From: a virus
Lineage: Duplodnaviria > Heunggongvirae > Uroviricota > Caudoviricetes
Virus record (IMG/VR): IMGVR_UViG_3300023707_000001
Reading direction: 5' to 3' (one strand)
DNA: 64,000 bases
The notes beneath the pieces were generated by a model that was not told the origin of the DNA, made no database searches, and worked only from the letters and a program-made list of their open reading frames with translations. Below are positions 17,950-29,400 of this stretch, piece after piece (position 1 is the stretch's first letter; each line of letters starts with the position of its first letter). The translations under genes and the position numbers were made by a program.

Positions 17950-19410
17950 ATGGCTGAAATACCTGAGTATAACAGAATCGATTACAAGAATGATTCCAGA
18001 ATTGTAATATATGCAAAGTCGGAAGCAATCAAGAAAGCTGGCGGAGATGTTTATGCGGGCGGAATAAACGCGCCCGCAATTAAGCCAAACAGCAAAATTG
18101 AGACGAAAGAGAAAATTAGCGGGGCTCAAAAATCTGACGGTGTCAAAGCGGTGACTACGCAAAACACGGCGTCTGGGAAATCAAGTGTGGTTTCCAATAG
18201 AAAATCCCAAGAGGAAAAGCTAAAGGCAGCTGAGGCCCGCAAGAAAAAACGGGACAAGGAATATCAGGAAAAAACAGCGCTTGCCAAAAAGAACAGTGAC
18301 AACGCAATCGAAAATGTACAAAAGTACATTGCCGATCAAGTAAAGCAGAGTACGGAAAAGAAAGAGAAAACCGTATCTTCTGCGGAAGCCTTGAAAGATA
18401 TGCAAAGTTCCGTAAAAAATATTTGGCAAGGAATTATTTCCCCTGTAAGCGACTCACTAAACCAAGCGGTCCAAAATGTAAAATCGGATGAGGCCGCCAA
18501 GCAGTTCGTGGACGAAATCCGTAAAGGCGCACAGGGTATCGGAAAGATTGAGGATTTCCTGAAAGGGAAAGATGGTTTTTCCGAGGAAGAGCTCTTAAAG
18601 CTGAGTACAAAAGCCCTTCTTGGATTACAGCAAGATATTCTGAGTCAGAACATGACGCATCAGGCAGTCCTGGATGGTATTGCTAAGCGTATTGCTGAAC
18701 AGGCAGGAAATATCGAAAAGCTGGCCAGTAGTGTAACGGAACAATATCTCCTACAGAAAGCCTACATCAATGCTTATCTGAAAAACACGTTTGGCAATCC
18801 TGAATTCATGGGCAAAGTGTCCAAGGAAATTGAGGGCAAAGTAACAGCCTATATCGATGCCTTGTCCAATGAAAAAATCAACATGGTGAATGAAAAAATC
18901 GACAGTGCAATCGACAATACATTTAGCCGTGTCACAAATACAATAGATACAACGACCAACAGGATAAATACGAAACTGGACGACTTGCTTAAGTTGGATA
19001 TCGTGAATGATATAAACTCCAAGCTCGAAAAGAGTATTTCTCTGGAATCGTTTGAAAAGAGGCTGAATGCAAATCCATTAACGCAAATCTTTGCGCCAAG
19101 CATTATGGCTATTTGTCAGGCTGGCCAGGTATCTGTTCTCAACTCCTTCAAACAGCCGAAGATGCTCGAAGCTATTAAGAAGGTTCAGGATAAGGTCAAG
19201 ATTGTTCAGGATAATCTTAAGAAGGCAAAAGACTTCATTGCCAACAAGACGAAGATGCTTAAAGAGTATGTGGATACGCTTAAGAAGAAGGCAACGGAAG
19301 CAGTTAAACAATTTGCCAACAAGGTTATTTCTGATATTAAGAGCAAGATTTCCGTCGCACTCGGCAATGCCATAAGTGGAGCGGTTTCAGGACTTGCTGC
19401 AGGTTTTTAG
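17950..19410 (+). CDS. Hypothetical coiled-coil virion protein
   Basis: 486-aa Lys-rich helical ORF tightly packed in the operon; no recognisable motif. Confidence 0.6.
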   Translation: MAEIPEYNRIDYKNDSRIVIYAKSEAIKKAGGDVYAGGINAPAIKPNSKIETKEKISGAQKSDGVKAVTTQNTASGKSSVVSNRKSQEEKLKAAEARKKKRDKEYQEKTALAKKNSDNAIENVQKYIADQVKQSTEKKEKTVSSAEALKDMQSSVKNIWQGIISPVSDSLNQAVQNVKSDEAAKQFVDEIRKGAQGIGKIEDFLKGKDGFSEEELLKLSTKALLGLQQDILSQNMTHQAVLDGIAKRIAEQAGNIEKLASSVTEQYLLQKAYINAYLKNTFGNPEFMGKVSKEIEGKVTAYIDALSNEKINMVNEKIDSAIDNTFSRVTNTIDTTTNRINTKLDDLLKLDIVNDINSKLEKSISLESFEKRLNANPLTQIFAPSIMAICQAGQVSVLNSFKQPKMLEAIKKVQDKVKIVQDNLKKAKDFIANKTKMLKEYVDTLKKKATEAVKQFANKVISDIKSKISVALGNAISGAVSGLAAGF

Positions 19411-19413
19411 GGG

Positions 19414-19953
19414 GTGGTGATAAAAGTGATAGATTTAGAAATGACAGAGAACGGCGATATTAACTGGTCCTCCGAACCCAGCATATCGACTTTCCGCTTG
19501 CGCTTTGCGCTGTCAGACTACAAAACGCAGCATATTCATTTCTTGTGTATGCCGACAAGCCGGAGGCAAAATGTTCCGCCAAAGAAAGGGCAGCATATTC
19601 AGTTCCGCTATGTAGAGCATGGTGATGAACTGAAACTGCAGACAGGACTTGTGCAGGAGCAGAAGGAAACACTTCAATCCTTATATATTGCCTTAAGAAC
19701 AGAACTTGGCGACGTAAATGACGATACGGTAGGTTCCGATTTTTATAAGGTGTCACATAAGATAATTACGGAAAGTAATGACCTGACCTATATTCGTGAC
19801 AGGGCGGGGGAAGTCGTGCAGAAATTCTTCCCCGGCACGCTGCTGGAGGCAGAGTATGTTATCTGCCCAGAGGCTGGCAACTTCAAATACCAGTCTGTAA
19901 AATTCACAATAAAAGATAAAAACAATGAGGTTATCGCCTCATTTGTATTCTAA
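19414..19953 (+). CDS. Putative gp25/gpW-like baseplate wedge protein
   Basis: C-terminal LYIALRTELGD...GSDF pattern; position before baseplate J once the NAD cassette is removed. GTG start uncertain. Confidence 0.45.
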   Translation: MVIKVIDLEMTENGDINWSSEPSISTFRLRFALSDYKTQHIHFLCMPTSRRQNVPPKKGQHIQFRYVEHGDELKLQTGLVQEQKETLQSLYIALRTELGDVNDDTVGSDFYKVSHKIITESNDLTYIRDRAGEVVQKFFPGTLLEAEYVICPEAGNFKYQSVKFTIKDKNNEVIASFVF

Positions 19954-19980
19954 GGGAGCAAAAAAGCTCCCTATTTTTTT
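19953..19980 (+). terminator. Rho-independent terminator
   Basis: AGGGAGC-aaaaaa-GCTCCCT followed by ATTTTTTT. Confidence 0.8.
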
Positions 19981-20011
19981 AAAAAAAATTGTAAGTAAGG
20001 ACACAAAACCA

Positions 20012-20040
20012 TTGACAAATGTAGTAATGTGTACTATGAT
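20012..20040 (+). promoter_or_regulatory. sigma70/sigmaA promoter of the NAD operon
   Basis: TTGACA (20012-20017), 17-bp spacer, TATGAT (20035-20040). Confidence 0.85.
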
Positions 20041-20060
20041 TAACGTAGTACAAGATACCA
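20022..20060. promoter_or_regulatory. Two tandem NrtR-type operators (GT-N7-AC)
   Basis: TAGTA-atgtg-TACTA (20022-20036, perfect palindrome overlapping the spacer and -10) and TAGTA-caaga-TACCA (20046-20060), directly upstream of an nrtR gene. Confidence 0.75.
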
Positions 20061-20078
20061 CATAGAGAGGTTAAAAAA

Positions 20079-20852
20079 ATGAAACAGTCACAGGAAGAGA
20101 AAGAATTTCTCAAGAGCTACAACGCAGCGCAGTACGAAAGGCCGTCGGTAACGGCAGACGTTGTTATCTTTACTATTGATAAGGATAATGACCTGAGTAT
20201 CCTGCTGATAAAACGCGGTGGCCATCCATACAAAGACCACTGGGCGATACCTGGCGGATTCTTGGAAGCAGGAAAAGAATCTATCGATGAAGCTGCGGCC
20301 CGCGAATTGTATGAGGAAACAGGGATAAAAGTTTCCGACGGTATTGAACTTCGGCAGCTTATCACGATGGGCGAACCGAACCGTGACCCAAGAACACATG
20401 TTGTAAGTGTAGTTTACACAGCATTGGTTCCTAAAGGGCTCTTACATATCAAAGCCGGAGACGATGCGAAAGAAGCACAGCTCTTCAAGATTCGCGATTG
20501 GTTCGACGAAGAGGGGAATATTAAGACTCGTTTTATCGGTGACAAGATTTCCCTTACCATGGACAACCTAGCGTTTGACCATGCCCGTATCGTAGAGGTT
20601 GCAATAGAAAGGCTTCGCGGCAGATTAAGTTACACGAATGATGCTTTTGCAATGCTTAAGGATAAAAAGTGCTTCAGAATTTACGAGCTTAAGAAGATTC
20701 ACGAAGCCATCCTGCAGAAAGTAATCGACCGGGCGAATTTCAGAAAGATGTTTATTCGAAACTTTGTCGATACGGGGAAGGTTCGAGAACTGGATAAAAG
20801 TGAGGTAAAGGGCGCAAAAACAGCAATGTATGCCCTGCTTGATAGTCAATAA
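20079..20852 (+). CDS. nrtR: NrtR-family Nudix + winged-helix transcriptional regulator (ADP-ribose sensor)
   Basis: YERPSVTADVVIF, Nudix box GGFLEAGKESIDEAAARELYEETGI, RDPR, LAFDHARI, wHTH IDRANFRK. Confidence 0.92.
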   Translation: MKQSQEEKEFLKSYNAAQYERPSVTADVVIFTIDKDNDLSILLIKRGGHPYKDHWAIPGGFLEAGKESIDEAAARELYEETGIKVSDGIELRQLITMGEPNRDPRTHVVSVVYTALVPKGLLHIKAGDDAKEAQLFKIRDWFDEEGNIKTRFIGDKISLTMDNLAFDHARIVEVAIERLRGRLSYTNDAFAMLKDKKCFRIYELKKIHEAILQKVIDRANFRKMFIRNFVDTGKVRELDKSEVKGAKTAMYALLDSQ

Positions 20853-21110
20853 CCCCCGCCTAGCGGCTTTGCGCTTGAGGCGGGAGCTTGCGGAAGCAAG
20901 CTCTGATTGACTAGCCTAAGTCTTAACTGACTACGTTGCTTTCGTTATCTCACCCGTGGGTGTTTATCCTAGCTTACGGCTCTGAGCAGGCTCTGTAAAA
21001 GTTCTGAGAGGTAGGAACGGTCAACCTGAGGACGGTCTGGCGTTAATCCAGACAAGCGATTACAACATTGGCGAAGGGTAGATTACTCTAATTTGAAGCT
21101 TTTGCTTCGG
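20825..21110 (+). ncRNA. omegaRNA (guide from the nrtR 3' end, scaffold ~20845-21110; ends approximate)
   Basis: ~280-bp structured non-coding region immediately 5' of iscB, with scaffold-like segments GACTAGCCTAAG..CTACGTT, CTCTG..GCTCTGTAAAAG and AACATTGGCGAAGG. Confidence 0.8.
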
Positions 21111-22424
21111 AAAGGAGGTACACGTTATGTTCGTGTACATCATTAACAAAAACGGACAGCCGCTAATGCCCTGCAAGCCTCAAAAAGCAAGAAAGCTCCT
21201 GAAGGCTGGCAAGGCGGAGGTTGTCAAATATGAGCCATTCACTATCAAGCTGAAATTTGGCTCAGCTGGCTACAAACAGCCGATAACTTTAGGTATTGAC
21301 GCCGGCTCCAAACATATTGGGGCTTCCGTGTCAACAGAAAAACAGGAATTATATGCTTCGGAAACAGTCATGCGTTCTGATGATGGCAAGGCTACTATCG
21401 TGAATCTTATAGCAAAACGCAGAGAGCTTCGACGTAACCGCAGAAACCGTAAGACCCGTTATCGCGAAGCAAGATTCTTAAACCATGTTCATCGCAAGCA
21501 CAAAGGCTGGCTTGCTCCAAGCGTAGAGAACAAAATCCATGTCCACCTAAAGCTGGTGGCGGATATCCACAAGATACTGCCCATCACTAAAGTAGTGGTG
21601 GAAGTTGCCCAGTTCGACATTCAGAAGATTAAGAATCCTGATATTTCCGGTGTCGAATATCAACAAGGTGAACAACTTGGTTGGGCTAACGTCAGGGAAT
21701 ATGTATTATTCCGCGACAATCACGAATGTCAGTGTTGCAAAGGCAGATCTGGAGATCCGATACTGAATGTGCATCACATTGAGTCGCGAAAAACTGGCGG
21801 CAACGCACCAAACAATCTGATAACTCTCTGCGAACATTGCCATCAGAGCTATCACCAAGGCAAAATTTCTTTACCTAAGTCGATACATCGCGGCATGAGT
21901 TTCCGAGATGCAGCTTTCATGGGCATCATGCGATGGGCATTCTACAATAGAATTAAGGCGTTATATCAAGACGTCAAACTAACTTATGGTTACATCACGA
22001 AAAATACTCGCATCAAGAATAACATTGCCAAGACACATACAGCTGACGCTTACTGTATCGCCGGGAACGTCAAAGCTAGACGGCTTAAACATGAGTATTT
22101 ACGTAAGCAAGTTCGCAGGCATAATCGCAAACTACATCGAGAAGTGCCAGCTAAAGGTGGTATTCGTCGATTGGCTCAAGCAGGGCATTTCGTAAGAGGC
22201 TTTTGCTTGAACGATACTGTGATGGCCAAAAATCAGCAGTGGTTTATTCGAGGCATGCGTCAAAAGGGCAGTTTTGTTCTAAGACATCTTGATGGCACAA
22301 AACTGGAAATTGCGCTTTCAAAAATAACATTTTTGAGACATAACAATTCTTATTTAATCGAGAGGAGAGAAGTGGCGCTTACCTCCACCCTGTAGAGGGT
22401 GGAGTCCCCGCGCCGCGATTTTAG
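20845..22424 (+). mobile_element. Non-autonomous IS200/IS605-family IscB (OMEGA) element, no tnpA
   Basis: Starts GTCAATAACCCCCGCC with hairpin CCCGCCT..AGGCGGG (20855-20884); right subterminal hairpin CTCCACCCT-gtag-AGGGTGGAG (22383-22404); contains omegaRNA and iscB. Ends inferred to within a few bp. Confidence 0.8.
21127..22395 (+). CDS. iscB: IscB RNA-guided endonuclease (split RuvC + HNH)
   Basis: PLMP motif, RuvC-I GIDAGSK, Arg-rich bridge RRELRRNRRNRK, RuvC-II VVEVAQFD, HNH CQCC..VHHI..GGNAPNNLITLCEHCH, RuvC-III HTADAYCIA; RBS AAAGGAGG. Confidence 0.95.
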   Translation: MFVYIINKNGQPLMPCKPQKARKLLKAGKAEVVKYEPFTIKLKFGSAGYKQPITLGIDAGSKHIGASVSTEKQELYASETVMRSDDGKATIVNLIAKRRELRRNRRNRKTRYREARFLNHVHRKHKGWLAPSVENKIHVHLKLVADIHKILPITKVVVEVAQFDIQKIKNPDISGVEYQQGEQLGWANVREYVLFRDNHECQCCKGRSGDPILNVHHIESRKTGGNAPNNLITLCEHCHQSYHQGKISLPKSIHRGMSFRDAAFMGIMRWAFYNRIKALYQDVKLTYGYITKNTRIKNNIAKTHTADAYCIAGNVKARRLKHEYLRKQVRRHNRKLHREVPAKGGIRRLAQAGHFVRGFCLNDTVMAKNQQWFIRGMRQKGSFVLRHLDGTKLEIALSKITFLRHNNSYLIERREVALTSTL

Positions 22425-22440
22425 ATGGAGGAAAATAGTC

Positions 22441-22998
22441 ATGGAAAATAAGAAAAAAGTATTAATCGTTGTGGATATGCAGAACGACTTTATCGACGGT
22501 GCGCTTGGAACAAAAGAAGCCCAGGCTATTGTCGACAATGTAGCCAAGAAGGTTGCGGAGGCAAAAAAGAACGACGATGTCGTTGTCTTCACACAGGATA
22601 CGCATACGGAAGACTACCTCAATACGCAGGAGGGTAAGAATCTGCCGGTGCCTCATTGCATTAAAGGAACAGATGGTTGGGAGATAACCAGCAAAATTGA
22701 CATTCCTAAAGAATGCCTGATGTACGAAAAAGGTTCCTTTGGTTCTGGTGAACTTGGCAAAGACCTTTCCGATAGCGAAGGGGAAATCAGTGCAATTGAA
22801 TTCGTTGGGCTCTGCACAGATATCTGCGTACTTTCCAACGTGGTTATCGCAAAGGCTGCGCTGCCAGAAGTCCCCATCACAGTAGATGCGGCATGCTGCG
22901 CGGGCGTAACACCGAAGAGCCACGATGAAGCTCTTGGTGCATTGCAGATGATTCAGGTAAAAGTCGTAAATCAAGGACAGGAACCCTGGAGGGCATAA
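22441..22998 (+). CDS. pncA: Nicotinamidase (isochorismatase family)
   Basis: VVDMQNDFIDGALG, TQDTH, PHCIKGTDGW, EKGSFGS, GLCTDICV; ATG 22441 with GGAGG RBS. Confidence 0.9.
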   Translation: MENKKKVLIVVDMQNDFIDGALGTKEAQAIVDNVAKKVAEAKKNDDVVVFTQDTHTEDYLNTQEGKNLPVPHCIKGTDGWEITSKIDIPKECLMYEKGSFGSGELGKDLSDSEGEISAIEFVGLCTDICVLSNVVIAKAALPEVPITVDAACCAGVTPKSHDEALGALQMIQVKVVNQGQEPWRA

Positions 22999-22999
22999 A

Positions 23000-23527
23000 A
23001 TGCGCGTCGGTATTTTTTTCGGGTGCTTCATCCCGTTACATAAGGGCCATGAAGAAATGATTCGCTTAGCAATGAAGGAAAATGACCACCTGATTCTTGG
23101 TATATGTGGATACGATAACGACCGAGGAAAGGGGTATCTTTCATTCAGAGAACGACTAAGGTTAATGACAAAACTTTTTGGCGACAAGGAAAATGTGACG
23201 CTTGCAGTTGTGGATGATAAGAAAGTCGGGCTCAAGGGAACATTTAGCGTGAACGCCTGGAAGCTTTGGTCGGACGAATTGTTTGAGAATGCCAAATTCA
23301 ATCCGAACGACAAGTCTCACCAGTACACCTGGTATTCTGGTGAGCCGGACTATCTGGAAAAGATACAGGAACTTTACCCGACCCACGAAATAAAACATAT
23401 ACCGAGGACGTTAATTCCTATTTCGGGAACTCAGATTAGAAACAATACAACTAAGTACAGGGAAGATGTTAATCCGCTTTTTGCAGTCTATCTTGCAGAG
23501 CGGGGATTGATGGAGGAAAAATTATGA
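23000..23527 (+). CDS. HxGH nucleotidyltransferase, probable NaMN/NMN adenylyltransferase (NadR/NadM-like)
   Basis: GCFIPLHKGH and ISGTQIR motifs; lies between pncA and pncB. Confidence 0.75.
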   Translation: MRVGIFFGCFIPLHKGHEEMIRLAMKENDHLILGICGYDNDRGKGYLSFRERLRLMTKLFGDKENVTLAVVDDKKVGLKGTFSVNAWKLWSDELFENAKFNPNDKSHQYTWYSGEPDYLEKIQELYPTHEIKHIPRTLIPISGTQIRNNTTKYREDVNPLFAVYLAERGLMEEKL

Positions 23528-24741
23528 AATTCAAACAGATTATTAACTCACTTCTGGAAACCGACCTTTACAAATTCAGCATGGGGCAGGCTATCTTCCA
23601 CCAGGCCAGCGAATTTGAAACGACCTGGTCATTTAAGTGCCGTAACAAGGATGTGTTCTTCACCCCTGAAATGGTTGAAGAAATCCGCGAACAGATTCGT
23701 GCGTTCTGCAATTTGAGTTTTACAGAAGATGAACTGGATTATCTTGCCAATATCAAATGGCTGAAAAAATCCTACATCAATCACCTCCGCTTGTGGCATC
23801 CGAACTTTGACAATTTCATTATTAAAGCGGGCGGAGAAAAAGGGCTTATCCTTGAAGCAAAAGGAACGCTTCTTGATACCTCCATGTATGAAATTCCGAC
23901 TCTGGCCATTGTCAATGAGGTGTATTTCCGGTTCCGTGACGACTACGCATTGCTCGTTGAAGATTCAAAGGCACGGACAAGAGCAAAGGCAGAAAAGCTC
24001 CAGATGGGGAAATACTGGCTGCCGGTATTCTCTGAATTTGGCCTTCGCCGCCGCCTTTGCGCAGAAGCACAGGAATATGCTGTAGAAACATTCTCGAAAC
24101 TGGATTGTCACGATGTATTGCGTTCGCATTTTGTCGGTACGTCCAATGTTTATCTGGCCAAGAAATATGGTGTAACTCCTGTCGGCACGATGGCGCATGA
24201 ATGGATTATGTGCATGGGACAGGGCAATCATCTTTACAATCCGGCATATTCCAACAAGGTAGCTCTTGAAGCTTGGGTAAGAGAATATGGCGTGGATAAT
24301 GGTATCGCTCTTACTGACACGATTACTACGGACTGCTTCTTGCGTGATTTCGACAAAACACTGGCAACGCTCTTTAGCGGTGTCCGTCACGATTCTGGCG
24401 ATCCGTTTGTGTGGGGCGATAAGATGATTGACCATTACACCCGCCTTGGTATTGACCCTGCAACAAAGACCCTGCTGTTCTCAGATTCTCTTGATTTTGA
24501 GAGAGCTGATAAAATTGCGCGTTATTTCCAGGGTAAGGCAAAAGTAGCTTTTGGTATTGGTACTTATATCTCAAACGATACCTACGCAACGCCGCTAAAC
24601 ATCGTTATGAAGGTTACGGAATGCAACGGAAGCCCGGTGGCCAAAATCTCCGATACGGAAGGTAAGGGAATGTGCAAGAGTCAGGAATATGTTGACTACC
24701 TGCAGCGTTCGATTGACTGGCGTCTGAAAAACAACGATTGA
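23524..24741 (+). CDS. pncB: Nicotinate phosphoribosyltransferase
   Basis: SLLETDLYKFSMGQ, EFGLRRR, GTSNV, GTMAHEW, GVRHDSGDP, FSDSLD, FGIGT, KISDTEGK. Confidence 0.95.
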   Translation: MKFKQIINSLLETDLYKFSMGQAIFHQASEFETTWSFKCRNKDVFFTPEMVEEIREQIRAFCNLSFTEDELDYLANIKWLKKSYINHLRLWHPNFDNFIIKAGGEKGLILEAKGTLLDTSMYEIPTLAIVNEVYFRFRDDYALLVEDSKARTRAKAEKLQMGKYWLPVFSEFGLRRRLCAEAQEYAVETFSKLDCHDVLRSHFVGTSNVYLAKKYGVTPVGTMAHEWIMCMGQGNHLYNPAYSNKVALEAWVREYGVDNGIALTDTITTDCFLRDFDKTLATLFSGVRHDSGDPFVWGDKMIDHYTRLGIDPATKTLLFSDSLDFERADKIARYFQGKAKVAFGIGTYISNDTYATPLNIVMKVTECNGSPVAKISDTEGKGMCKSQEYVDYLQRSIDWRLKNND

Positions 24742-24752
24742 GAGGAATAAAT

Positions 24753-25523
24753 ATGTATCCAGAATTTGACGCGGAAAAAGACAAACAAAAAATTATTGAT
24801 TTTATCAGAATGTGGTTTGCGATAAATGCAAGCCTGGACACAAAAGCTGTTATCGGAATTTCAGGCGGCAAGGATTCTTCTATTGCTGCAGCGCTCTGCG
24901 TAGAGGCGCTTGGAAAGGATAGTGTCGTCGGCGTACTTATGCCAAACGGTGTACAGGCAGATATTGACGATGCTCTGGCTTTGGTAAAACACCTTGATAT
25001 CAAATACCGCATTGTAAATATTGAGGCGCCTTACAAGGCTATGCTAAAGGCCATCCAGTACACAGAAACAGCAAGTGACAATAATTTTTACTTTTCCGTG
25101 ACCAGCCAGCTCACGCAAAATCTGGCTCCGAGACTTAGAATGGCAACTCTGTATGCAGTAGCGCAGGGGGTTCATGGCGGCGGCCGTGTAATTAACACCT
25201 GTAACCGTTCGGAAGATTATGTTGGCTATAGCACAAAATTTGGCGATAGCGCCGGCGACATATCTCCTCTTGGAGCATATACGGTTGATGAAATTCTCGC
25301 TATTGGCGATACGCTCGACCTGCCTGAAAAGCTCGTACATAAGGCGCCATCTGATGGCCTTTGCGGTAAGACCGATGAAGATAACCTTGGGTTTACTTAC
25401 GCAGTGCTTGATAAATACATCAAGACGGGAGAGTGTAAAGACGAAGTCACCCAGAAAAAGATTGACGAACTGCACGATAAAAACCTGCATAAACTGAAAC
25501 CACTACCAATGGTTGAGCGGTAA
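24753..25523 (+). CDS. nadE: NH3-dependent NAD+ synthetase
   Basis: GISGGKDSS, NLAPRLRMATLY, TCNRSEDYVGYSTKFGD, KAPSDGL..TDEDNLGFTY; no glutaminase domain. Start placed at ATG 24753. Confidence 0.95.
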   Translation: MYPEFDAEKDKQKIIDFIRMWFAINASLDTKAVIGISGGKDSSIAAALCVEALGKDSVVGVLMPNGVQADIDDALALVKHLDIKYRIVNIEAPYKAMLKAIQYTETASDNNFYFSVTSQLTQNLAPRLRMATLYAVAQGVHGGGRVINTCNRSEDYVGYSTKFGDSAGDISPLGAYTVDEILAIGDTLDLPEKLVHKAPSDGLCGKTDEDNLGFTYAVLDKYIKTGECKDEVTQKKIDELHDKNLHKLKPLPMVER

Positions 25524-25527
25524 GATA

Positions 25528-25567
25528 AAAAGCCTCTATCGAAATGATGGAGGCTTTTGTTTTGTTT
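25528..25567 (+). terminator. Rho-independent terminator closing the NAD operon
   Basis: AAAAGCCTC(t)ATC-gaaat-GAT(g)GAGGCTTTT followed by a T-rich tract. Confidence 0.75.
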
Positions 25568-25642
25568 CGTGGACTAAGGCGTTATGGGTGGTAATGACTG
25601 CACTAGATTAACTTCGGAAAACAATAAACGGAGAGGAAAACA

Positions 25643-26431
25643 ATGCGCACAGCTGAAGATATAAATTTAAGTATAAGAGAAAATTTTAAGAAAATCACAG
25701 GGCACAAGTACCGGCAGGGAAGTGCGCTTGGATTCATAACCGACGCAGTATCACGCGAAATGGAAAAGGCCCATCTTGAGATTGAGCGAAATAAGAACCC
25801 GCATATCTATACCAATCTTTACGGGGAAGACCTGGATAAGATGGGAACCTTTGTAAATATACCGCGCGAAGCCGGCGAAGACGATATGACCTATCTCTAC
25901 CGGATTATGAACTGGACTTATCTAAAAGCAGGAGCAACAAACATCGCGGTTAACGACTCCTTGCTTAATCTGGAGTATTCGTCCGATGCTCAGTATTATC
26001 CACAGATTCATGGAGCAGGCACGGGTGTTATTTACATCATCCCTATAAAATACGAGGACGATATTATGGCCAAGGCGCTTGCCGAGGTAAAAGACCGTGT
26101 GAAAAATGTTCTGTCCCCAGAATCATATACAGAGTACATCATTCCCACAGCAATCCCTGTTAATCTTATCTGCCACCTTGAGGTGAATGGAGGAGACGTT
26201 GCTTATATCAGGGATAAGATTACAAGTGCCATCAAAGACTACATTAACGGTATCGCACCGAATGATTATCTTTCTGTGGGGGAAATGAACCGTATTGGAC
26301 TTGCGGTTGACAATGTAGATTTCTTCTCTATTGATGGTGTTTACCTTAATGGGGAATACAATACGAACACAAAGATACTGCAAGAGTTGGAAACTAAGAT
26401 GTTGTTCCAGGAAATTAGCTGGGAGGATTAA
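25643..26431 (+). CDS. Baseplate J-like protein
   Basis: GEDLDKMG...R..GEDD..Y..RI and GAGTGVIYIIP...EVKDRV..V.P patterns; baseplate context. Confidence 0.7.
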   Translation: MRTAEDINLSIRENFKKITGHKYRQGSALGFITDAVSREMEKAHLEIERNKNPHIYTNLYGEDLDKMGTFVNIPREAGEDDMTYLYRIMNWTYLKAGATNIAVNDSLLNLEYSSDAQYYPQIHGAGTGVIYIIPIKYEDDIMAKALAEVKDRVKNVLSPESYTEYIIPTAIPVNLICHLEVNGGDVAYIRDKITSAIKDYINGIAPNDYLSVGEMNRIGLAVDNVDFFSIDGVYLNGEYNTNTKILQELETKMLFQEISWED

Positions 26432-26437
26432 TTATAA

Positions 26438-29400
26438 ATGAGCTTGTCTTTAGAAACCGTTTTGCCCAGCATGAAGCAGAGCTTCCCCAGCTGGTCAGAC
26501 ATTCGTAAGCGCACCGACAAATCGGTTGGCGGCGCATTGATAAAATCGTATGCCTGTGAAGCAGATTATATACAGGATGCAATTAATGAGTATCGCAAAC
26601 TGTTCTTCCTGCTTAATTACAAAGACCATGAGGAAGAGTTTGCAGACTATCTCTATATCGCAACTGTGGGTAAACAAAACGAGATAAGTGTCGTTGGTTT
26701 TCCGTGCCAGGTTACGGAAGATGATGACTTGTTCTATAACAACATGGACAAGATGGCCCTGTACAAAAATGGTTATCTGATGTTCCATGAAAATATCCTT
26801 CCGAATGGCGCTGAACAGAAAACGGTTCAGTACAAAACAGAGAACAAAAATGTGTATGAAGCAGAATTGCACAAAGAGCACATCTGGAATGCATTCGATG
26901 AGTTTGCTCTATTCGCAGGACTCACCAGATATGGAAATGAAACCAATAGTGAGCTTGCAGCACGTACCGTGCAGATATTCAAAGAATTTCCCAACCCGAC
27001 CGGTGACGGGCTGAGGAATGCTGTAAAAGACGCGATTGCTCCACACGAAAAAATCGAGGATGAAGCAATTGATATATACACGTTTGGTGATAAAAAATTC
27101 ACGCTGAGCCGTGAAGACCACAGGGCCATGTACGAAGACATGGTACAATTAAACCGAGATATTTTCCGGGCCAAGGTTTGGAACAGGGATATTTGGGAAC
27201 ATGGCTTCCAGAAAACGGATTACATTCCGCATGTTTGGGATGCCCCGATGGAAGCTGTGCAAAACGGCGTAGGATATAACGACTCCCTGCGGGCGGATTA
27301 TATTAAGCGTCTTGGCCAGAGTGAAACCACAGACATTGAAGTAAATGCGTACAAAAAAGACTTTGAACGTATTCGGCAGTATATCGGCCGCACAAATGTT
27401 GAAGCGTCCATCCAGCTCACGCTCACAAAATACACGGATGAAGTCAATCCGAAAAATGTAGAGTTTTGTGTGAGAGCTTACGATGTTAAAAAGATTGACA
27501 AGCCGGAAAACATTCATGTTCTTGGAACGCGGAAGCAGAATGGTGAAAAGCGTTACTATGTAGATGACCTCGATGTGGAAACCTATGGCGTAACCCGCGT
27601 AGAGGGCAATCACCTTGAAGAGAACGCTTCGTACAAACTGAAGTTCACACCAAAAGATACGTTTGCCGGCATGTCCATTGAAAAATGCGCACTGGTTTCC
27701 GATAGTGGCGAAAAGGATTTACGTAAAGAGTATTCGTATTACAAGATGCAGAACGGAAGCATCGTAAACCAAAATGTTGCAGCGCACGTTACTTCGACCG
27801 CTCAAATCACCATCAATCACAATGTTGAAGATTGCAGCACGGGTATTACGGTTGGCCATGGTGACTCAAAAGGCCTGTTCGGCGTCGATGTCACCGGCAT
27901 GGGAAAAGAGCTTGTCAACTACAGTGTTGCTTGCCGGCGTATTGATATAACTTCTTCAAGTTATATTGAAGGGCGCAATGGCTTTGAAATCAGTGAAGAC
28001 GGAAAATCATTCGAGAGTACCCGTCCAGATTCTCTTGGCCAAATTATCATTGGTGGCCAGGGGCGTGAAATGAGTTGTAACTCATATTCGTTCACACTGG
28101 ATAAGTCAGACATTCCTGCATTGCAGGGCGCAATTACCGTCACGGAAATCGTTGATGGGCAGGTTACGCAGATGACCTATCGCCAGCCGCAGGATATTGT
28201 GCGTGAATTCAAGAAGCGCTCGACGGTTCAGGTTATCATCCAAAAGTATGGGCAGAATCCTGTAAAAATCAAAAACATTGCCATGGCAAGCTATGACGTG
28301 AATGTTGGATTGTCTGATGGTACACCGCTTACGATGTCCGGAAAAACAATCCGCTTGCCGGAAAATGTTGACGGAAAAGTTCTGAATGTGGAAATCATTC
28401 CTTACACGGCGGCATACCCGGTAGTAGAATACCTGCATATCGGCGGCAGCCTGAAAGGCGCCAGATACGAAGTCGATTTCAACACGGACGGCCTCAAGAA
28501 CCCGAAACTGGATATCGACACGGACTGCAACATAACCTTGTATAAGAAGTCTGGCGGCAGCAGTATCCTCGTAGGCGACGAATACAAATATACAACAAAA
28601 GCACGCTTTAAGAATACGACTTCCGACCCCGGCCAGATTATTCTCGACCTGAGCGATTTTGCTTCCATCTCCAGTGCTAGTCAGAAGATAAAAGACCAGT
28701 ATAAGGGTATGAACAAGAAGTATATCGAACTTGCGCCAGGAGAAGAAATCTTCGAGATGGACATAACAGGTGAGGTTATCAGGCAGGTTACAAACAAACC
28801 AATCCTGTGGCATCTGTTTGGGGACGATACGAAGAATAAAGAATTGTATGCTACCCGAGGAACGAATGGATACATTCTGGTAAAAGACACGGAAAGCGGT
28901 GAAACGAAAAAGGTAACAATCCGATACGAGGATTTGGATGGCAGAGCAGACAGCTACCAGCTGACCGGGCTTTCACATGAACTTTCCGCAGAGTTTGTAA
29001 CAGCAAACGGTGAAATTCGTGAAACGGTAAACTCTGGTACGGGCTCAATCTTTGACCATCTTGGAATAACGTACAAACAGGCATCTGAGTATGTTGCTTA
29101 CAATACGTTCTCCATGATTCGGGAAAAGCAATCGGGAGTTGAACTGGTAAACACGTTTACGCCGGTTATGTCCATGACGGAACTGAAATACTATGTAATT
29201 GCTTCAACGAAAAATGCAAGAGAAGATAAGGTATGTTTTGAAACCTCTGGTGATAACTGGAGCCTGGGCGTAGATGAGAAGGGCATTTCCATTACGACAG
29301 TGTTGGAAACCAAAAACGCAGACTCTTGGATTATCAGTATCAATAATGTAAACAACAGGTATATCCTTGCCAACGAAGTCCCGCTGGAGGAAAGATATTT

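Follow-up and report, generated by a model that had tools for sequence, protein, structure and literature searches.

An NrtR-controlled NAD+ salvage operon captured by a large animal-gut phage and its candidate four-step route from nicotinamide

The depletion of nicotinamide adenine dinucleotide (NAD+) ranks among the commonest strategies by which bacteria resist phages. Since 2024, proof has been given for three phage pathways of NAD+ rebuilding. None of them takes the nicotinic-acid route, although large phages of Bacillota show that route most often. Two of these NAD+ reconstitution pathways, NARP1 and NARP2, were defined in a 2024 preprint that makes no mention of PncA, NadE or nicotinic acid; the third, NARP3, consists of PnuC and a bifunctional NadR (Sci Adv 2026, PMC13464706). 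Complete salvage or Preiss–Handler pathways have been catalogued in 174 'NAD-jumbo phages' (Microbiome 2024, PMC11662467), and the same work described a pncB-nadD-nadE cluster in Kuafu_71 and proposed, from sequence and with no experiments, that such pathways supply NAD+ and may counter its depletion. Here we analyse an operon of this general kind in the tailed-phage record IMGVR_UViG_3300023707_000001 of IMG/VR, using a stretch of 64,000 nucleotides (the window). The operon lies at 20012–25567 and comprises, in order, nrtR, an omega RNA, IscB, pncA, an adenylyltransferase gene, pncB and nadE. A preliminary description of this DNA had offered it as a candidate new type of answer to NAD+ depletion, but Preiss–Handler clusters in jumbo phages, and their proposed role as such a counter, had already been published in 2024 (PMC11662467). 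The interval that it delimited does correspond to a transcription unit, running from a promoter at 20012–20040 to a terminator at 25528–25558.

The explanation that we consider best overall, with a probability of about 0.5, is that of a captured, NrtR-controlled operon that runs a four-step rebuilding of NAD+ on phage enzymes. An ancestor of the phage genus would have copied nrtR-pncA-pncB-nadE, with promoter and twin operators, from a Selenomonas-like host; a stand-alone NadR-family adenylyltransferase would then have been gained between pncA and pncB, and an IscB/omega-RNA element would later have landed at the nrtR-pncA junction. In the infected cell, PncA would deamidate nicotinamide to nicotinate and NH3, PncB would convert nicotinate, phosphoribosyl pyrophosphate (PRPP) and ATP to nicotinic acid mononucleotide (NaMN), the phage adenylyltransferase would turn NaMN into nicotinic acid adenine dinucleotide (NaAD), and NadE would amidate NaAD with NH3 to give NAD+. 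Infected cells would in this way rebuild NAD+ from nicotinamide, independently of host NadD. Transcription would be repressed by NrtR bound to the two operators, be it the phage copy or the 64–69% identical host protein, and would rise once NrtR is freed by ADP-ribose, which NAD+ cleavage yields besides nicotinamide. The benefit to the phage may lie in offsetting NAD+ loss, whether from defence NADases or from infection itself.

All four salvage genes named in the preliminary description are present, intact, co-oriented (plus strand) and tightly packed. The first, pncA (22441–22998), encodes a predicted nicotinamidase, which would release nicotinate and NH3 from nicotinamide. The protein belongs to the Isochorismatase family (Pfam, 8e-25) and its best solved relative is PncA of P. 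horikoshii (1ILW), with which it aligns both at the catalytic triad (Asp-Lys-Cys) and at the metal site (Asp/His/His); its match to the NCBIfam nicotinamidase model is below cut-off. The true start is probably the ATG at 22441, behind GGAGGA, the GTG at 22399 being only the start of the open reading frame (ORF). The product of pncB (23524–24741) scores above curated cut-offs as a nicotinate phosphoribosyltransferase, which forms NaMN from nicotinate, PRPP and ATP (NF003704, 471 bits with 379 needed; TIGR01514, 414 with 270 needed). The last gene, nadE (24753–25523), encodes a member of the single-domain, NH3-dependent NAD synthetase family (TIGR00552, 170 bits; cut-off 64) with the SGGKDS ATP loop present. 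Its raw ORF opens at a TTG at 24738, and translation probably starts at the ATG at 24753, behind GAGGA.

Between pncA and pncB lies the gene for a 175-residue, stand-alone nucleotide adenylyltransferase domain (23000–23527) with the motifs HKGH (HxGH) and ISGTQIR (ISGTxIR). Its best matches are TIGR01526, the L. lactis NadR structure 6GYE (4e-22) and phrog_3462; it also matches PDB entry 9X6F (1.6e-8), which is probably the NARP3 enzyme. No NadD-family match was found among curated models or in the PDB, and the phage protein has no kinase domain. Judged by its sequence, it is a NadR-type nicotinamide mononucleotide (NMN) adenylyltransferase domain and not a NadD. A search of 1.84 billion representative proteins gave only 15 matches to it with E ≤ 1e-30, and 102 when E ≤ 1e-10 was allowed; it therefore belongs to a small subfamily of stand-alone enzymes, the nearest kin of which are full-length NadR proteins. 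Pfam scans of ten relatives returned the transferase domain alone, plus one with a kinase. The pathway set out in the preliminary description is thus upheld in its gene content, including the HxGH enzyme, and in its predicted chemistry from nicotinamide through nicotinate to NaMN and in the end to NAD+; its third step, from NaMN to NaAD, would fall to an enzyme of NadR rather than NadD type and is a matter of interpretation.

The origin of the operon can be traced. Among bacterial PncB proteins, Selenomonas ruminantium, S. caprae and Selenomonas sp. have the closest ones (83–85% identical). The phage gene order nrtR-pncA-pncB-nadE recurs on Selenomonas chromosomes, there with nothing between pncA and pncB. 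The remaining products are 64–69% (NrtR), 58–62% (PncA) and 66–75% (NadE) identical between phage and Selenomonas. In a FastTree phylogeny of 161 PncB sequences, the window and four sister phages group inside the Selenomonas clade (support 100), beside S. ruminantium S137 (support 96), and in S137 the promoter and twin operators are nearly identical to those of the phage. The shared gene order, the nesting of PncB and the S137 operators together indicate that the phage captured a whole Selenomonas-type operon, promoter and operators included, and then added one gene. No relative of the phage adenylyltransferase was found in Selenomonas, the genomes of which have NadD elsewhere and a second, two-domain NadE. 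The preliminary description had mentioned acquisition from a bacterium as an alternative, and on the question of origin that alternative was right. When about 58 kb of the window was compared with 24 Selenomonas genomes, no CRISPR spacer or prophage was confirmed: there were four borderline matches (31–52 nt, E 0.001–0.004), and both of the two that were inspected lie outside repeat arrays. It is consequently gene transfer alone that points to a Selenomonas-like bacterium as the likely host.

The regulation travelled with the enzymes. The nrtR-like gene (20079–20852, plus strand) encodes an N-terminal Nudix domain (Pfam NUDIX, 1e-19), in which the Nudix box RELYEETG is intact, and a C-terminal NrtR winged helix (NrtR_WHD, 2.9e-6). 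The protein aligns over its full length with the solved NrtRs 2FML (2.8e-32) and 3GZ5; against NF050029 it scores 133 bits, under the 400-bit cut-off. The promoter, of sigma-70/sigma-A type (TTGACA-17-TATGAT, plus strand, 11 of 12 consensus positions), is the only one in the unit and is kept in the four sister phages (L002–L005) and in S137. Candidate operator 1 (GTAGTA-N5-TACTAT, 20021–20037), with a GT-N7-AC core, overlaps the promoter spacer and the -10 element, and candidate operator 2 (GTAGTA-N5-TACCAC, 20045–20061) lies just 3' of the -10 element. The window contains no exact match besides these two palindromes; with one mismatch allowed there are six strand-matches against 0.86 expected by chance, and the window holds no further NrtR sites beyond chance. 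The twin operators also keep their position in phage lineages whose NrtR proteins are only 36–61% identical, as seen by phylogenetic footprinting. In bacteria, NrtR binds a 21-bp palindromic operator with a GT-N7-AC core and is released from DNA by ADP-ribose (PMC2330246). The candidate phage operators fit that published site, and by analogy the phage NrtR would respond to ADP-ribose; its presence makes a link to the products of NADases more plausible. An Rfam match to snoZ6 within nrtR, which at 27 bits fails to reach the gathering score, was put down to chance.

NAD salvage cassettes are conserved in many large phages. The preliminary description had suggested that phage genomes be surveyed for the same gene set, and at least 135 IMG/VR contigs proved to encode a PncB 68–93% identical to that of the window; most of the related cassettes have an adenylyltransferase of their own, of NadD or NadR type. 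Cassette forms were counted over the best 80 of these contigs. The dominant form is PncA-DUF5662-PncB-NadD-like-NadE, sometimes with a PARG-like TIGR02452 protein in front; another is PncB-NadE-Nudix, the Nudix protein resembling an ADP-ribose pyrophosphatase (NudE/AdpP-like), and the NadR-type enzyme occurs at nine loci. A megablast comparison with 50,697 phage records gave zero matches to the cassette. Well-supported branches of the PncB tree force at least six switches between viral and bacterial sequences, and some 'viral' or 'bacterial' contig labels may be binning errors. An 'Odoribacter' metagenome-assembled contig (L091), for instance, carries a phage-type PncB-NadE-Nudix block nearly identical to that of 14 viral contigs and is probably mislabelled, and the PncB proteins of two 'viral' contigs (L028 and L031) are almost identical to those of Agathobacter genomes (L101 and L102), which is probably again a labelling problem.

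Several of these cassettes contain additional genes. Of the 80 viral cassettes, about 45 have a gene for a DUF5662 protein next to pncA and pncB or between them (examples are L060:7430–7996, L007:11634–12101 and L029:7463–7984). The 80 bacterial loci have none, and the protein is therefore a candidate phage-specific partner of the pathway. The PARG-like TIGR02452 protein, which has the fold of microbial poly/mono-ADP-ribose glycohydrolases, is encoded directly 5' of pncA in three contigs (L060:6083–6865, L006 and L059), preceded by a C5 DNA methyltransferase gene. The most elaborate arrangement, a 'super-cassette' in L051 (2998–9961) and L052, encodes NrtR, a small radical-SAM protein, a NadR-type adenylyltransferase, PnuC and an AAA_33 kinase, then PncA, a second adenylyltransferase, a NUMOD3 homing-endonuclease-like protein, PncB and NadE. 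It places a NARP3-like module and the deamidating route under one NrtR promoter.

What the phage gains from the operon can be read in more than one way. It may be a plain auxiliary metabolic cassette that boosts the NAD+ supply of a large phage with long replication in a gut habitat rich in niacin, with no specific relation to NADase defences and with NrtR as homeostatic control kept from the host; we hold this at somewhat less than even odds, and as it concerns the benefit it overlaps with the enzymological readings discussed below. It is consistent with the wholesale capture of a host operon, regulation included, with the repeated acquisition of similar cassettes from Bacillota hosts (the six or more switches in the PncB tree), and with the literature, which treats such loci as general NAD-synthesis clusters of jumbo phages (PMC11662467). 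However, variants of the cassette recruit handlers of ADP-ribose, namely the PARG-like TIGR02452 protein, the NudE/AdpP-like Nudix protein and NrtR with an intact Nudix box. Moreover, the substrate (nicotinamide) and the predicted inducer (ADP-ribose) are precisely the pair of compounds that defence NADases release, and experiments have shown that three other phage NAD pathways act against such defences.

That the benefit is specifically anti-defence is a possibility to which we also give a little less than an even chance. The support is circumstantial, and consists of the identity of substrate and inducer, the ADP-ribose-handling variants, and defence-type SIR2 domains, which are found in five of the 24 Selenomonas genomes. 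One Selenomonas genome (L187, G020:C10:192988–193392) holds a 1006-residue frame with a SIR2_2 domain. We found no experiment on anti-defence activity of this route in the literature searched. When the whole 108-kb contig was searched for further genes of NAD and ADP-ribose metabolism, it yielded no NAD-dependent ligase, macro domain, Prs, Nampt, PnuC, PARG-like gene, NadD or second Nudix gene. In its most far-reaching form, which we regard as unlikely, the cassette would be an inducible, deamidating 'fourth NARP'. Host NrtR would repress it early in infection through the near-identical operators, ADP-ribose from SIR2, TIR or SEFIR effectors would induce it, and four phage steps, with a NadR-family enzyme re-tooled for NaMN, would then lead from nicotinamide to NAD+. 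If true, the counter-defence would sense what the defence itself produces.

The four-step reading itself has to be set against a number of points that weigh on the other side. Characterised NadR adenylyltransferase domains (E. coli, H. influenzae and L. lactis) favour NMN. Since the phage enzyme is of this NMN-preferring type, its conversion of NaMN to NaAD is conjectural and the step may depend on host NadD; the NARP3 paper does not discuss NaMN (PMC13464706). Butyrivibrio chromosomes carry nrtR-pncA-(NadR-type adenylyltransferase)-pncB-nadE together with a separate NadD (L111:4220–7989, strain INlla18; also L114, L148 and L158). By gene order, this is a bacterial precedent for the phage arrangement, and a non-redundant role for the enzyme on NMN would explain the Butyrivibrio operon equally well. 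An adenylyltransferase gene lies within 3 kb of pncB at 49 of 70 viral loci as against 6 of 50 bacterial ones (loci with at least 2.5 kb on each side), in keeping with the four-step reading, but this enrichment comes down to five well-supported independent pairs, consistent in direction, for which a sign test is not significant. The deamidating route is also dearer in ATP than NARP2. The regulator and operators were inherited from the host operon and are therefore no evidence of adaptation to defence, and contigs from a metatranscriptome library, such as those that cover the locus, cannot prove its transcription.

The strongest competing account of the chemistry has the adenylyltransferase keep the NMN to NAD+ reaction and recycle NMN, for example from an NAD-dependent DNA ligase acting in replication, while PncA, PncB and NadE need host NadD to pass from NaMN to NaAD; the cassette would then not be an autonomous four-step pathway. 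The best matches of the enzyme, which are NadR NMN adenylyltransferase domains (TIGR01526, 6GYE and phrog_3462), speak for such a division into two branches, as do the homologue in the same operon position in Butyrivibrio despite its NadD and the availability of NadD in Selenomonas. One of three sister records, moreover, encodes an NAD-dependent DNA ligase (664-residue frame; L193, G030:C1:24896–25594). No such ligase was found in this contig or in the other two relatives, which include the most complete sister (224 kb, 95%).

Three features of related loci also argue against two branches and, as far as sequence comparison goes, favour adenylylation of NaMN. Firstly, in a viral contig of 467 kb (L032, 13682–14917) the NadR-type adenylyltransferase is fused to NadE in a single protein of 411 residues. 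We know of no description of such a fusion. Secondly, phages with two NadR-type enzymes split them: in L051/L052 and L029 one stands beside PnuC and a kinase and the other in the pncA..nadE block, suggesting different roles. Thirdly, NadD-type and NadR-type enzymes exclude each other in the pncA..nadE block, in that none of the best 80 viral loci has both there. On balance we consider the two-branch arrangement rather unlikely. If instead the added NadR-type enzyme does use NaMN, as the four-step route would demand, this would be a new specificity for its family.

A further route would be complete and yet bypass NaAD: NadE would work as an NMN synthetase, turning NaMN into NMN, from which the NadR-type enzyme would make NAD+. 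Among solved structures, the phage NadE comes closest to 3FIU (7e-33), which we take to be the NMN synthetase of Francisella tularensis, and the partner enzyme comes from an NMN-preferring family. The route is documented in Francisella (PMC3376133). Nevertheless, 3FIU leads ordinary NAD synthetases only slightly (2E18, 3e-30; 3P52, 7e-29). In addition, the phage NadE is 66–75% identical to the NadE of the Selenomonas operon, which works with NadD and without a NadR-type enzyme, and the same NadE family stands beside NadD-type enzymes in most phage cassettes. We therefore consider this bypass improbable. No NadD homologue was found elsewhere in the 108-kb contig.

The locus is not an assembly artefact of the kind that the preliminary description had raised as a concern. 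Contigs from independent public animal-faeces runs (X3 and X4), which include a metatranscriptome library and a DNA run, tile 19400–26500 with zero mismatches. One of them, of 5093 nt, covers 21109–26201, from IscB to past nadE, and another joins nrtR to the omega RNA, so that both junctions of the inserted element are bridged. In the DNA run (X4), the contig depth over 19400–26500 is about 2600, and the phage can therefore be extremely abundant in its habitat. That the operon is a mis-assembly of bacterial and phage DNA or a decaying, functionless passenger, as its strong similarity to a bacterial operon and the insertion within it might suggest, is exceedingly improbable and already largely refuted by the mismatch-free bridging of every junction at such depth, by the same gene order and phage flanks in four sister contigs of 79–224 kb, by frames that are all open with catalytic residues retained, and by the survival of the pncA ribosome-binding site.

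The insertion that separates nrtR from pncA is a non-autonomous IS200/605-type element of about 1.57 kb (20844–22409, plus strand, boundaries approximate). It contains a HEARO/omega RNA (20845–21086, plus strand; Rfam RF02033, 116.6 bits, gathering score 83) and, immediately downstream on the same strand, a gene for an IscB RNA-guided nuclease (21127–22395; NF040563, 376 bits, cut-off 175; Pfam RRXRR, 3e-63, plus HNH), and ends in a hairpin (22383–22404). The element is missing from the four sister phages, where nrtR abuts pncA; homology to them is lost at 20831 and returns at 22453. Its size follows from contigs of other genomic contexts, which split off at 20843–20845 and at 22399–22409. Related IscB elements are found in other contexts in the same faecal samples. 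We found no other copy in the contig or in four Selenomonas genomes, only weak partial matches in phage records, no TnpA near the element, and no IscB-free joint in the sequencing runs. The last codons of nrtR and its new stop codon lie within the element. As read from the sequence, the insertion broke no gene of the operon and kept the ribosome-binding site of pncA. It is recent, later than the capture of the operon, and peculiar to this phage. The IscB guide would be read from the 3' end of nrtR, and the element could therefore home into phage genomes that lack IscB.

The record that holds the window measures 108,102 bp, is classed as linear and is estimated by CheckV to be 47% complete; three sister records that were checked are 78–95% complete. 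All long ORFs of the window lie on the same strand. PHROG matches of the neighbouring genes are to tail fibres, baseplate proteins and primase, and the gene directly 3' of the cassette (25643–26431) has weak matches to baseplate proteins. A terminator-like hairpin with a T-run (19953–19972, plus strand) ends the upstream phage gene and insulates the 5' side of the cassette, and an intrinsic-terminator-like hairpin of 14 pairs with a T-run (25528–25558, plus strand) closes the operon. The four sister contigs are collinear around the locus, with identical gene order and flanking phage genes. The NAD operon is thus a self-contained, NrtR-controlled 'moron' inside the tail/baseplate module, a placement to which the baseplate match of the 3' neighbour leads, of an animal-gut phage of about 220–240 kb.

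Set beside the systems described so far, the locus most resembles those of the NAD-jumbo phages, which are likewise large gut phages with clustered pncB, adenylyltransferase and nadE genes and often pncA (PMC11662467). Those phages have NadD, whereas this locus has a stand-alone NadR-type domain; their hosts are Bacteroidota, whereas the likely host here is a member of the Bacillota. Unlike them, this locus keeps NrtR and two operators, has a donor that can be named (Selenomonas) and is interrupted by an IscB element. With the NrtR-regulated salvage operons of bacteria (Rodionov et al. 2008, PMC2330246) it shares gene order, regulator family, promoter-overlapping operators and the GT-N7-AC core, but here the operon is phage-borne, sits in a tail/baseplate module and has an extra NadR-type adenylyltransferase that Selenomonas lacks. 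The phage NadE resembles that of the Francisella tularensis NadE and NadM route in being a short, NH3-dependent enzyme associated with an NMN-type adenylyltransferase, with 3FIU as its best PDB match. However, its orthologue in Selenomonas coexists with NadD, and its partner in the phage is of NadR type, not NadM.

The contrast with NARP1 and NARP2 drawn in the preliminary description holds, and extends to NARP3: the gene sets differ, and only an Nmnat-like component is common. Like NARP2 (Nampt and Nmnat) and the NadV/NatV pair of Vibrio phage KVP40, the cassette would lead from nicotinamide to NAD+ and includes an HxGH adenylyltransferase. NARP2, in contrast, takes two steps via NMN without deamidation and has been tested experimentally, whereas the present cassette is known from its genes alone; the contig has no Nampt, its sole NAPRTase-family gene being a PncB equivalog. 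With NARP3 it shares an adenylyltransferase homologous to the N-terminal domain of NadR-like enzymes, but the contig lacks PnuC and a ribosylnicotinamide kinase domain, and the substrate would be nicotinamide or nicotinate rather than nicotinamide riboside. NARP1 (Adps and Namat) likewise rebuilds NAD+ from the products of NADase defence, but uses ADP-ribose directly via ADP-ribose pyrophosphate (ADPR-PP), whereas this contig has no PRPP-synthetase-like gene and its phosphoribosyltransferase scores as a true PncB. If none of the readings discussed above holds, the operon is one more auxiliary metabolic cluster of an already catalogued kind. What is specific to it is a traceable Selenomonas origin that includes the operators, a NadR-type enzyme placed in the NadD role, a regulator of the ADP-ribose type and the IscB insertion. 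With a known donor operon, one gene added by the phage and a regulator whose ligand in bacteria is ADP-ribose, the locus offers a clean test case for the nicotinic-acid route.

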